Source of the DNA: an uncultured Gammaproteobacteria bacterium | GTDB lineage: Bacteria; Pseudomonadota; Gammaproteobacteria; UBA9214 | NCBI GenBank assembly: GCA_963748215.1 | Contig: CAVVHS010000006.1 | Span: 224,001-288,000, forward strand | Direction: 5' to 3' | DNA: 64,000 nt | Shown: piece after piece, positions 34,888-51,018 of the stretch | Layout: every line of letters starts with the position of its first letter | Position numbering within the stretch: position 1 is the stretch's first letter | Position numbers and translations under genes: made by a program | The notes under the pieces: generated by a model | What the model saw: the letters and a program-made list of their open reading frames with translations, nothing else | The model's database searches: none | Told to the model about the DNA's origin: nothing

Positions 34888-34962
34888 GGCGATTCACTTC
34901 ATGGCCTGGGTTAAGTGGAGCAGAAACAGTGCCTGCACTGTGTGATGTATTCCCCGATTTAA

Positions 34963-35127
34963 GGAAGCTCTGATTAATTCAATGCTCGTCATTCCGGCGC
35001 GAAGCCGGCCCCTGCGAAGGCTGGGGCCGGAATCCAGCAACAGCCTGAATTGTAACAGCTGGATTCCGGGTCTCTCCCCGGATCAAGTCCGGGGTTCGCC
35101 CGGAATGACGGATTAATCAGAGTTTCC
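34963..35127. mobile_element. 165-bp MITE with IS5-like ends carrying nested palindromes
   Basis: TIRs GGAAGCTCTGATTAAT / ATTAATCAGAGTTTCC (15/16 match) flanked by TTAA on both sides (34959-62, 35128-31); no coding capacity. Confidence 0.8.
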
Positions 35128-35250
35128 TTAAGAAATTCATGGCTGTTGCCTGATCTGGTATTGCATCCGGCGCCCTGGGTGAAAGTATGCAGTTCTGTAT
35201 GTTTTGCGGCCTGTTCCTTTTTTTCTTCATCTTTGTGCACAATATCAGGT

Positions 35251-36328: not shown

Positions 36329-36433
36329 GGGGTCAGAGACAGTTGATTTGCAGTGGACGGGTGTCATTGAACGAGTCTCCAGCAAAATCAACTGACTCTG
36401 ACCCCGCGATGCCAAATCAATCGACTCTTACCC
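36329..36433. repeat. 21-bp inverted repeat (GGGGTCAGAG family) plus a degenerate third copy
   Basis: GGGGTCAGAGACAGTTGATTT (36329-49) versus AAATCAACTGACTCTGACCCC (36385-405), 20/21; AAATCAATCGACTCTTACCC at 36414-33. Confidence 0.8.
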
Positions 36434-39080: not shown

Positions 39081-39263
39081 CTCGCGCAGAGACGCAGAGA
39101 ACGCAAAGCTATAATCTTCTGTCACATGCATGACAGGAATGATTCCTGATGACATGAATTGTTATGACATCGGATTCCACAGACACTTTGCGAGCACGGG
39201 GTTGCCAGCAATAAAACTGGACAATAGCCGGTTTTTCTCTGCGCCTCTGCGTCTCTGCGCTAG
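39081..39263. repeat. Element bounded by inverted (CGCAGAG)3 arrays
   Basis: CTCGCGCAGAGACGCAGAGAACGCAAAG (39081-108) and CTCTGCGCCTCTGCGTCTCTGCGCTAG (39237-63); AT-rich interior. Confidence 0.75.
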
Positions 39264-48443: not shown

Positions 48444-49208
48444 ATGAAAACAGACGTTTCCATGCCTTCCCGCGCCATGTCATTGCGCAATTGGTATCAG
48501 CGTCCGCTTGGGCAGCAACTGGCCGCGGCGGAAGCGGCCGCGCTCGCCGCACAGCTGCCGATGCTGTTCGGCTATCACATGGTCGTCATCGACCCGCCAT
48601 GGGGGCAGTGCCGGCTGGATGACAGCCGTATTCCGCATCACGTCATCCAGAGCGTCGGACCCTTGACGCAGCCGGGCGTGGGGCTTTCCGCGGATACGGA
48701 AAACTGGCCGATCATGACCGATTCGATCGATGCCATCGTCCTGCCGCACACCCTCGAACTCAGCAACAATCCGCACCAGGTGCTGCGCGAGGCCGACCGC
48801 AGCCTGATCCCGGACGGCCACCTCGTGATCCTGGGCTTCAATCCGTTCAGTCTGTGGGGCCTGCGGCGGAAACTGACGCGGCGCAGCAATACCATGCCCT
48901 GGGGCGCGCGCTTCCAGAGCCTGCACCGTATCAAGGACTGGCTCGGCCTGCTCGGCTTCGATACCCTGCACAGCCATTACCTGTTCCAGCGACCACCGGT
49001 GCGCAGTCGGCGCGTACTGGCGCGATTGCAGTTCATGGACCGGGTCGACGGCAATGGCTACATGCTGCTGTCGGCGAGTTATATCCTGGTCGCACGCAAG
49101 CGCACCGTCATCATGACGCCACTCAGGGAAAGCCTGCGTCCGCAAACACGACTGTTTCCGGTGGGCATACCGTCTTCAAACCAGGGCAATGTGCGCAGAT
49201 TCAACTGA
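48444..49208 (+). CDS. SAM-dependent methyltransferase-like protein (YafS-like)
   Basis: [23 protein letters not shown] and GFNPFSLWG; upstream of rnhA. Confidence 0.85.
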
Positions 49209-49653
49209 AACGGAGATCTTCACTGACGGGGCCTGTCGCGGCAATCCCGGACCTGGCGGGTGGGGTGCGCTGCTGCGCCACAACGGTCACGAGAAGACCC
49301 TGTACGGTGCGGAGACGCAGACGACCAACAATCGCATGGAGCTCATGGCGGCCATCGCCGCCCTGGAAAGCCTGAAGCGACCGTGCCGAGTGCACCTGGT
49401 CACCGATTCGCAGTATGTGCAGAAGGGCATCGAGGAGTGGCTGGCGGGCTGGAAACGGCGCGGCTGGAAAACCGCGGCCAGAAAGCCGGTCAAGAACGTG
49501 GACCTGTGGCAGCGCCTGGACCGTGCCGCGAGCGGTCACGTCGTCCGCTGGAGCTGGGTACGCGGCCACAGCGGCCACGAGGAAAACGAGCTGGCCGACC
49601 GGCTGGCGAACCAGGCGATCGACGAACTGCTGCAGGATGGAACGACGCCCTAG
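49189..49653 (+). CDS. rnhA: Ribonuclease HI
   Basis: [26 protein letters not shown] and [12 protein letters not shown]. Confidence 0.97.
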
Positions 49654-49999
49654 CCCGCATTTCTCACCGGGCGGCAGTCGTTTCACATAATGAGCTGAAA
49701 TGATGGACGTGATGCCAGTTCGGCATAAAACAGTGTGTTAGCGGGCATTGCCTATCCCGGCCCTGGCTGGTTCTCGTGCACCCGTACTTGCGATGTACAG
49801 GGACGTACAAGTGGTCGCTCTCGCACATCCCTGTACTTCGCGACACTCGGACTCCTGTCCATCGTCGCGGGAGTCAGGAAGTCGGGAGCGACCTGTTCAC
49901 ACAAGTGGTGGCTACGGCTACCACTTTCGCTCCAGAGCGGCGTCCGGTCACACGAGCCCTGTGCCAGCATCCGGGATCCCGGTGAGAAATGCGGGCTAG
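49650..49999. mobile_element. 350-bp MITE with perfect 22-bp TIRs and a 7-bp flanking direct repeat
   Basis: CTAGCCCGCATTTCTCACCGGG (49650-71) / CCCGGTGAGAAATGCGGGCTAG (49978-99); CGACGCC at 49643-49 and 50000-06. Confidence 0.9.
49754..49977 (+). ncRNA. Candidate structured RNA inside the MITE
   Basis: Multiple nested stems, G-U wobbles mostly valid on the + strand, a cUACGg tetraloop and CsrA-consensus loops (see findings); expression unproven. Confidence 0.45.
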
Positions 50000-50080
50000 C
50001 GACGCCCGTGCGTCGGTACGCTGGCAAGTAGCAGCCGGACAGTTCGTGGCGCAGCGCACCGTATAATACGAGGAACAGTC

Positions 50081-50812
50081 ATGCGGCAAATCGTGCTCGA
50101 CACCGAAACCACCGGCCTTGAACCTGCCGATGGTCATCGCATTATAGAAATCGGTTGCGTAGAACTGGTGGACCGGCGCCTGACCGGCAATACCTACCAT
50201 CAGTACATACAGCCTGACCGGCAAATCGATGCAGGCGCCATCGAGGTGCACGGCATCACCAATGAACAGCTGCTCGACAAGCCGCGTTTCGCCGATATCT
50301 CCGGCGAATTCCTCGATTTCATACGGGGCGCCGAACTGGTCATACACAATGCACCGTTCGATGTCGGTTTCATCAACCACGAGTTACGCCTGCTCGGCGA
50401 GCCCGCAGACAACGTGGCGCAGCTTTGCGGCGTACTGGATACCCTGCAGCTGGCACGGCGCATGCACCCCGGACAACGCAACAGCCTCGATGCATTGTGC
50501 CGGCGCTACGATATAGACAATTCCCGGCGCGATCTGCATGGCGCATTGCTGGACGCCGAGATACTGGCCGATGTCTACCTCGCCATGACCGGAGGCCAGG
50601 TCAGCCTGTCGCTGGATGCTAATGGCTCGAACGAGGCGCGCGGTGGCGGCAGCGCGGATGGTGTCATCCGCCGACTGCCGGCCGGGCGGCCGCAGTTGCG
50701 GGTGATCAGGGCGACGGACGAGGAAGCTGCGCTGCACGAGGCCAGACTGGATGCCATCGCCGGCAAGAGTGACGGCAATGTGGTCTGGCGTAATGCAGAC
50801 GGCTCATCCTAG
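50081..50812 (+). CDS. dnaQ: DNA polymerase III epsilon subunit
   Basis: LDTETTG, HNAPFD, HGALLDAEILADVY and MTGGQ. Confidence 0.97.
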   Translation: MRQIVLDTETTGLEPADGHRIIEIGCVELVDRRLTGNTYHQYIQPDRQIDAGAIEVHGITNEQLLDKPRFADISGEFLDFIRGAELVIHNAPFDVGFINHELRLLGEPADNVAQLCGVLDTLQLARRMHPGQRNSLDALCRRYDIDNSRRDLHGALLDAEILADVYLAMTGGQVSLSLDANGSNEARGGGSADGVIRRLPAGRPQLRVIRATDEEAALHEARLDAIAGKSDGNVVWRNADGSS

Positions 50813-50910: not shown

Positions 50911-51018
50911 TGTAGGAGCGGATCTCATCCGCGATCTTTTCTAGCGTGGTAAAGATCGCGCTTGCGAAGCGCGCCTACGACAATCAGTCAACCTGTAGGA
51001 GAGGATCACGCCCGCGAT
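50911..51018. repeat. GTAG-type REP cluster (doublet plus degenerate third copy)
   Basis: TGTAGGAGCGGATCTCATCCGCGAT (50911-35), ATCGCGCTTGCGAAGCGCGCCTAC (50955-78) and TGTAGGAGAGGATCACGCCCGCGAT (50994-51018). Confidence 0.85.

Follow-up and report, generated by a model that had tools for sequence, protein, structure and literature searches.

The rnhA-dnaQ intergenic element

The subject of this analysis is a 342-bp element at positions 49654-49995 of a 64-kb stretch of DNA (64,000 nucleotides, hereafter the window) from an uncultured gammaproteobacterium, where it lies between two co-directional genes of the plus strand, rnhA and dnaQ (Table 1). The element is bounded by an inverted repeat that, together with the tetranucleotide CTAG on its outer side, is perfect over 22 nt (49650-71/49978-99), and 100 shuffled sequences gave no chance match of this kind. 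The 18-nt repeat proper matches the 64 kb only twice, the two matches being the ends of one and the same copy, and neither of the two open reading frames tested in the element matched a Pfam family. The rnhA-dnaQ spacer measures 427 nt with the element and 81 nt without it, 346 nt having been added.

As judged from sequence comparison, this stretch is probably a non-autonomous element, a miniature inverted-repeat transposable element (MITE), moved in trans by a transposase of the IS1380 family and built of a backbone palindrome with a lineage-specific insert; the probability of this reading is put at roughly three in four. It would be an ordinary MITE of an IS1380-derived kind that is apparently undescribed so far, and for the genome itself its presence would be routine, consisting of a MITE placed exactly on the rnhA stop codon and a longer spacer before dnaQ.

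An IS1380-family transposase, acting in trans, would have moved the element into the CTAG that holds the TAG stop of rnhA; because this stop lies inside the left CTAG, rnhA is unchanged. Two points at the ends tell against the reading: the flanks do not separate a two-base duplication (TA) from a four-base one (CTAG), the two being indistinguishable because CTAG is itself a palindrome, and no empty site of a relative, which would prove the insertion, turned up.

Table 1. Coordinates of the element, its parts and neighbouring genes in the window, and of related 177-178-nt elements.
Feature	Position	Strand	Basis or remark
rnhA (RNase H)	49189-49653	+	Open reading frame; Pfam RNase_H, E 3e-51; TAG stop 49651-53 within left CTAG flank
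Left CTAG copy of target duplication	49650-49653		Sequence; flanks of related elements
Left terminal inverted repeat, 18 nt, CC start (CCCGC)	49654-49671	+	Perfect inverted repeat with 49978-95
Left-arm module common to ~122-bp class	49672-49753	+	BLAST of element 1-111: 73-80% identity to L043, L063, L072, L093 and others
Left half of backbone palindrome (outer stems)	49754-49792	+	Two alignments of relatives, with covariation
First part of ~51-nt expansion-prone unit, with plus-strand SELEX-like site 49795-806	49793-49811	+	Absent from L005, L092, L068, L097, L033, L044 and L016
Window-specific 51-nt segment, inverted duplicate of its own flanks, with perfect minus-strand SELEX match 49825-36	49812-49862	+	Reverse-complement alignment
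Second part of ~51-nt unit, with three plus-strand GGA, all paired with 49812-62 in minimum-energy fold	49863-49895	+	Folding, comparison
Right half of backbone palindrome, including hairpin 49903-26 (UACG loop)	49896-49977	+	91-95% identical to L005, L092, L097 and L068
Right terminal inverted repeat	49978-49995	-	Partner of 49654-71
Right CTAG copy of target duplication	49996-49999		Sequence
dnaQ (exonuclease)	50081-50812	+	Open reading frame; Pfam RNase_T, E 5e-40; starts 85 nt past element
178-nt class, seven lineages	L001:2001-2178, L019:1841-2018, L034:1841-2018, L040:2001-2178, L087:301-477, L104:301-478, L111:301-478		

The repeat family and its transposase

Scanning genome contigs with the 18 nt of the terminal repeat yielded at least 121 related loci (L001 onwards), on which all family counts given here rest. 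The loci listed come from Gammaproteobacteria, Alphaproteobacteria, Acidobacteriota, Planctomycetota, Nitrospira, Actinomycetota and other groups, and one of them, L031, repeats part of L032 and was left out of total-sequence counts. Among them, pairs of repeats with up to three mismatches bound at least 67 distinct elements of 48-426 bp, which fall into size classes near 122, 178, 215 and 243 bp having only their ends in common, and single genome bins can carry many copies (more than 10 loci each in OZ253547.1 and JAHEKD01). The flanks of the 67 elements are identical over 4 nt in 28 cases, 25 of which read CTAG, and share the central two bases in 38; none has identical 8-nt flanks. An 8-bp target duplication (CGACGCCC) was rejected on this last count, and on the ground that the CTAG model keeps rnhA intact.

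The link to a transposase comes from locus L071, where a 1.64-kb element flanked by CTAG carries the repeat at both ends (18/18 at one, 15/18 at the other) and encodes a 460-aa transposase that matches PF13701 (E 2e-150) and NF033539, the NCBIfam model for IS1380 (E 1e-119). By tblastn, relatives of this transposase adjoin the repeat in 4 of the 121 loci listed (L071, L008, L061 and L108) as full or partial IS1380-family genes, and an IS630-type parentage with duplication of TA was dropped once these repeat-adjacent transposases had proved to belong to the IS1380 family. No homology to the L071 transposase was found by tblastn in the 64-kb window, and the element gave no blastn match to plasmid and phage sequences.

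Insertion sequences of the IS1380 family, as described in ISfinder, have ends that begin with CC and make a short duplication of 4-5 bp. With its CCCGC start and CTAG flanks the element fits these traits, and it has those of a MITE in being small and free of a transposase gene, with terminal inverted repeats and a target-site duplication. No IS1380-derived MITE appeared among the titles and abstract openings listed from the literature searched, a coverage that leaves out most subscription journals and ISfinder; for CsrA in combination with such elements the same literature gave only the paper on Rfam 12.0.

A conserved backbone palindrome

The whole element folds with an energy of -181 kcal/mol on the plus strand (z -10.6) and -173.7 kcal/mol on the minus strand (z -8.8), and none of 100 shuffles reached either value. 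A forced long pairing of the plus strand, at -181.5 against -181.0 kcal/mol unconstrained, was judged an artefact of enforced non-standard pairs and was not used. An initial annotation, made from the letters of the DNA alone, had described the interior as a two-state structured RNA, and every stem on which it relied is present: the outer stems (49754-60/49971-77, 49763-67/49963-67 and 49773-78/49951-56), the hairpin 49903-26 with its UACG loop, and an 11-bp helix (49813-23/49883-93) in which 10 of 11 positions are complementary. The two inverted copies of a motif further inside, which it had proposed to pair with each other, can do so (arms 49790-811/49820-41, 18 of 22 complementary).

The covariation among relatives that this annotation had suggested looking for was found. 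Across nine aligned sequences the backbone palindrome comprises 57 pairs; 94.3% of cells are paired and in 11 pairs both sides have changed, a level reached by none of 500 shuffles and to be set against 1-3 in slid controls. The hairpin 49903-26 likewise persists, through compensatory changes, in L044, L016 and L020. The pairing of the backbone is maintained by compensatory changes and its hairpin architecture goes beyond chance. The ~122-bp class corresponds to the left arm of the window element alone.

The argument for selection on an RNA, from imperfect pairs most of which were said to be G-U on the plus strand only, breaks down within the cargo (49754-49977): each strand has 80 pairs of which 6 are G-U, and the minus strand is slightly the more stable (-114.8 against -111.6 kcal/mol on the plus). 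The three hairpins that had been listed carry one plus-strand G-U each and the competing 17-bp helix three on the minus strand, and over the whole element the plus strand has 14 G-U in 130 pairs, the minus strand 6 in 124. The backbone palindrome most likely serves the element itself, either in mobilisation or as a single-stranded form of it, a view taken because classes of unrelated sequence in many phyla share the trait.

The insert and its inverted duplication

The closest copies among the matches listed are L005, L092 and L068 (242 bp), L097 (371 bp) and L033 (318 bp), with L044 and L016 more distant. All seven share 49650-49792 and 49896-49999 of the window, and all seven lack the intervening ~103 nt at about 49793-49895. 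At the same site of the backbone L097 has an unrelated G+C-rich insert of ~130 nt (402-539), and L033 carries an unrelated G+C-rich insert of 75 nt elsewhere, after the UACG hairpin.

Relatives were also found at the protein level, through spurious open reading frames that run across the element and were searched against protein collections. An exhaustive search listed 150 hits, of which 4 short ones were kept and 146 (at least 429 aa, with multi-stretch matches) were dropped as low-complexity noise; a second search supplied 5 further hits, and a word-indexed search with the minus frame gave no hits. Six of the nine relatives known at the protein level lack the insert, namely P0080, P0139, P0156 and P0157 (minus frame) and P0001 and P0002 (plus frame). 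A unit of 17 residues, or 51 nt, in the minus frame is present as a single copy in each of P0045 and P0095 and as a tandem pair in P0155 (a jgi record), and the window holds 34 residues at the insert site, the length of two units; such protein-level comparison cannot show the state of a nucleotide motif in these three relatives, back-translation being ambiguous. The tandem unit of P0155 suggests that the insert spot of the backbone expands repeatedly.

The extra 51 nt of the window, at about 49812-49862, have no counterpart in the one-unit forms P0045 and P0095. Their reverse complement is identical to 49790-811 at 18 of 22 positions and has a gapped match to 49864-94, neither of which was reached by any of 1000 shuffles. 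An inverted duplication is thereby supported instead of a tandem one, of which TRF found none in the window copy at a score of at least 30. The comparison shows the insert to consist of a ~51-nt expansion-prone unit plus an inverted duplicate specific to the window, and marks it as the fast-changing and recently duplicated part. It is because of this inverted duplicate that the 11-bp helix, its neighbouring helices and a perfect match to a CsrA-binding consensus on the minus strand exist at all.

A nested repeat or repetitive extragenic palindrome (REP) was also tested for the insert and was not supported, as no other copy lies in the window or the 121 loci listed beyond words of 10-17 nt. One such word, of 17 nt, is common to L102 and the beginning of the insert.

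Form and strand bias across the superfamily

The 178-nt class has 11 members from seven lineages, one of them a bin labelled Actinomycetota, and all are 177-178 nt long. Between lineages the internal identity is 43-64%, except for three pairs at 72-81%, and an alignment with one member per lineage shows compensation in 29 of 60 predicted pairs. For a MITE this constancy of form is unusual; errors of binning might explain some of the spread over phyla, though not the divergence. The two ends of this class differ in the way that those of the L071 element do, which would make its favoured strand antisense to the transposase.

One strand folds better than the other in all 11 members of 177-178 nt, by 9-25 kcal/mol. 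The difference amounts to 33-36 kcal/mol for members of 179 nt and to 6-17 for the 215-nt class; in the 243-nt class one strand is better by about 1-20 kcal/mol in 9 of 10 members. Among aligned members of the window type, the strand corresponding to the minus strand of the window is favoured in 8 of 9, by 4-29 kcal/mol. Fixed lengths, covariation and strand bias together suggest, with moderate support, that selection acts on the element in single-stranded form.

This raises the question as to whether the conserved hairpin acts single-stranded under strand-specific selection, either as an element RNA, for example an antisense regulator of the IS1380 transposase, or as a hairpin of single-stranded DNA in mobilisation; this is regarded as unlikely. 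The length of the 178-nt class stays fixed and nearly half of its pairs are compensated in spite of low identity, and the strand bias recurs across the 177-178-, 179- and 215-nt classes and most window-type members. Where the flanking genes run in one direction, the favoured strand is the transcribed one in 4 of 10 cases, no bias toward host transcription, although that count rests on crude GC3-based gene calls in which the window's own right-hand gene is miscalled. When columns with only wobble changes are set against those with only A-C, over the two-strand pair set of six classes, wobble prevails significantly in two (10:1, p 0.012; 12:3, p 0.035), but the asymmetry is not significant in the other four (13:6, 21:12, 2:1 and 8:11). 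The favoured strand is, moreover, no more than the strand rich in G, and agreement within a class is inflated by common descent. In the window copy it is the opposite strand, the plus, that folds better, by 7.3 kcal/mol; this copy has no promoter-like site, and no DDE transposase of the IS1380 family is known to use single strands.

A length and a pairing that are kept across phyla, with one strand folding better, are unexpected for junk palindromes. They make it testable whether transposases of this kind, or transcripts of the elements, need a single-stranded hairpin.

Possible use by the host

A second alternative is that the host has co-opted the hairpin as an RNA element between rnhA and dnaQ, where it would serve for processing, stabilisation or attenuation, as has been reported for Correia and ERIC elements; it is held to be doubtful. 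The setting between two co-directional genes would allow it. The initial annotation had allowed for a promoter of dnaQ at a TATAAT (50062-67), and this hexamer is indeed there, but it ends 13 nt before the ATG and a consensus scan finds no promoter-like site before dnaQ. Because of that short distance a transcript from it would start inside or after GAGGA and would go without this ribosome site. With no promoter found, dnaQ may therefore depend on read-through across the element, and in the read-through RNA the 22-bp perfect stem is predicted to form, together with the long hairpin. On the MITE reading favoured here, too, RNA of the element read through from rnhA would, if it acts in any way, be a stem-loop between the two cistrons that may be a substrate of RNase III or a stabiliser, as in other MITEs. 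A review on MITEs reports that RNase III cleaves the inverted repeats of Correia elements and that ERIC affects transcripts (PMC10969869).

Against such a use, the stem is followed by no U tract, and the orientation of family members to their flanking genes looks random (the same 4 of 10). CTAG targets naturally fall at TAG stops, and position alone is no evidence of use.

Likeness to CsrA ligands

The interior had been presented in the initial annotation as a mobile RNA cassette working as a CsrA sponge or switch. The mobile half of that description stands, on the strength of the MITE ends and the family, whereas the tests of a CsrA-acting RNA came out negative. In its full form the proposal is that RNA of the element presents GGA hairpins of the CsrA/RsmA type and titrates CsrA, or puts rnhA and dnaQ under Csr control, by switching between an open hairpin and a sequestering helix; this is considered highly improbable.

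Its starting point is correct. The consensus RUACARGGAUGU, obtained by systematic evolution of ligands by exponential enrichment (SELEX), has exactly two matches in the 64 kb at up to one mismatch, 49795-806 on the plus strand (11/12) and 49825-36 on the minus strand (12/12); the shuffled window has a mean of 0.39, with two or more in 5 of 100 shuffles. ACA and GGA are invariant in this consensus, with GGA in hairpin loops, and McaS, a small RNA (sRNA), reportedly uses two or more sites to bind CsrA (PMC4347634).

Several observations speak for the proposal and count against an element that is a MITE and nothing more. The plus-strand site keeps both ACA and GGA, and its hairpin lies only 3.3 kcal/mol above the minimum-energy fold. 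The strict pattern, with up to one mismatch, occurs twice in the 67 other elements (L020 and L102) where 0.10 is expected, a count seen in 2 of 300 shuffles. Tetraloop hairpins with CA/UG closure and stems of at least 5 pairs number 142 in the loci and the window, and among their loops GGGA shares first place, with seven cases, those of the window, L020, L070, L046, L062, L077 and L001. Around this loop a block of 10 nt is common, in the same orientation, to L020, L070 and the window, and in L020 and the window it lies about equally far from the right end. A compensated stem pair distinguishes L020 from L070, and L046 and L062 share another CA-GGGA-UG hairpin, also with a compensated pair. The recurring cases may share ancestry and therefore represent about four independent origins.

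Hairpins of the form stem-CA-GGGA-UG-stem lie at L020:1850-1880, L070:1845-1880, L046:95-110, L062:225-240 and L077:340-360. A separate palindrome at L001:3829-3942, with perfect arms of 31 bp, encloses two small hairpins that present GGGA and AGGGA, some 40 nt before a start codon; it has a 13-nt word in common with window 49795-49807, is single-copy in the loci listed and has no Rfam match.

The state of the sites themselves tells against a CsrA ligand. The segment of about 49793-49895 that holds both is the one missing in the seven closest DNA relatives listed and in six of the nine protein-level ones. The two sites lie on opposite strands, a motif and its own inverted copy, and, being arms of one inverted duplication, they are one motif copied once, in a single event. 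The perfect site, antisense to both rnhA and dnaQ, is enclosed in a 17-bp helix, with an unpaired probability of 0.0 and a cost of 14 kcal/mol for opening. On the plus strand, the AGGGAC hexaloop hairpin that had been described is not part of the minimum-energy fold (pair probability ~0.015; forcing it accounts for the 3.3 kcal/mol above), and the GGA at 49801-03 is paired with 49940-45, its unpaired probability being 0.02. GGA is found 7 times on the plus and 8 times on the minus strand, against 5.9 and 6.9 in shuffles, and never in a hairpin loop of the minimum-energy folds. The RsmE-type consensus has 3 matches in the 67 related elements against 1.13 expected, a number reached in 29 of 300 shuffles, and such sites are present in only 4 of 68 elements among the loci listed.

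A simple consensus scan of 49100-50300 on both strands gave no promoter-like and no terminator-like site. The Rfam check that had been proposed gave no match in the window at the gathering score, to a Csr or Rsm family or to any other; at E up to 10, 49500-50200 gave two chance-level hits to unrelated families only, and eight related loci gave nothing relevant at E up to 1. The statement that the window contains no csrA gene agrees with a light, motif-based search of its six reading frames. In a leader repressed by CsrA, GGA lies over the ribosome site and a second site lies within reach of the CsrA dimer. The ribosome site of dnaQ, GAGGA (50070-74), contains GGA as most ribosome sites do, and the plus-strand SELEX-like site is ~270 nt upstream of it.

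The likeness to CsrA ligands most likely arose as a side effect, from small G-rich hairpins in a palindrome that duplicates. There is a very slim chance that a gammaproteobacterial branch of the IS1380-mobilised hairpin superfamily spreads CsrA-type ACA-GGGA-UGU hairpins on a strand-specific RNA; if so, transposition would plant modules that bind or titrate CsrA beside host genes, here rnhA and dnaQ, a striking but unlikely outcome.

Other inverted repeats in the window

Four further inverted repeats were seen in the window. At 39081-39263, a 19-nt repeat (95% complementary) with CTAG ends encloses 145 nt that are richer in A+T, possibly a small mobile element, and at 34959-35131 an A+T-rich repeat of 20 nt (95%) encloses 133 nt of G+C-rich palindromic sequence, possibly another MITE. 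Strong inverted repeats also lie at 36329-36405 (21 nt at 95%, 35 nt between the arms) and, just past dnaQ, at 50912-50978 (28 nt at 79%, 11 nt between the arms).

Comparison with known systems

With the CsrA-binding RNAs CsrB, CsrC and RsmX-Y-Z, and with CsrA-bound leaders, the element has in common one or two hairpin-compatible matches to the SELEX consensus in which ACA and GGA are intact. CsrB carries 18 CsrA sites and CsrC 9 (PMC4347634). By comparison, the GGA content of the element is at chance level on each strand and no GGA lies in a predicted loop, its sites are on opposite strands, and it has neither a promoter-like or terminator-like site of its own nor an Rfam match; its nearest site is ~270 nt from the ribosome site of dnaQ.

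The superfamily as a whole bears a likeness, and no more than that, to the attC sites of integrons in its low identity, conserved length and imperfect palindrome with one strand that folds better, but differs from them in ends, target and enzyme (a DDE transposase instead of a tyrosine recombinase), and there is no integron context here.

There is also a likeness to bacterial MITEs, such as the Correia/NEMIS elements of Neisseria, ERIC and RUP: these too are small, non-coding and dispersed, with inverted repeats, a short target duplication and a long hairpin, and they are often found at gene ends, where co-transcription is possible (PMC10969869). The available text of that review covers sRNAs derived from MITEs and has no occurrence of IS1380 or CsrA. 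The present elements differ in that their ends match the IS1380 family, CTAG is the preferred target, and the superfamily spans many phyla with size classes that share only their ends.

With IS1380 insertion sequences such as IS1247, which has 1672 bp, inverted repeats given as 16/13 and a direct repeat of 5 (PMC3281130), the element shares a terminal repeat that is identical or nearly so, the CC start and CTAG flanks, as seen in the L071 element. It differs in being without a transposase and in its 342 bp as against ~1.6 kb, and the interior of the L071 element is unrelated to it beyond the repeat. A last parallel is with piggyBac, whose target TTAA is, like CTAG, a palindrome of 4 nt. In piggyBac trees, IS1380 transposases serve as the outgroup (PMC10813416). 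The element connects small hairpin elements of environmental bacteria, a large set that appears not to have been described and has CTAG as its target, with transposases of the IS1380 family, prokaryotic relatives of piggyBac.

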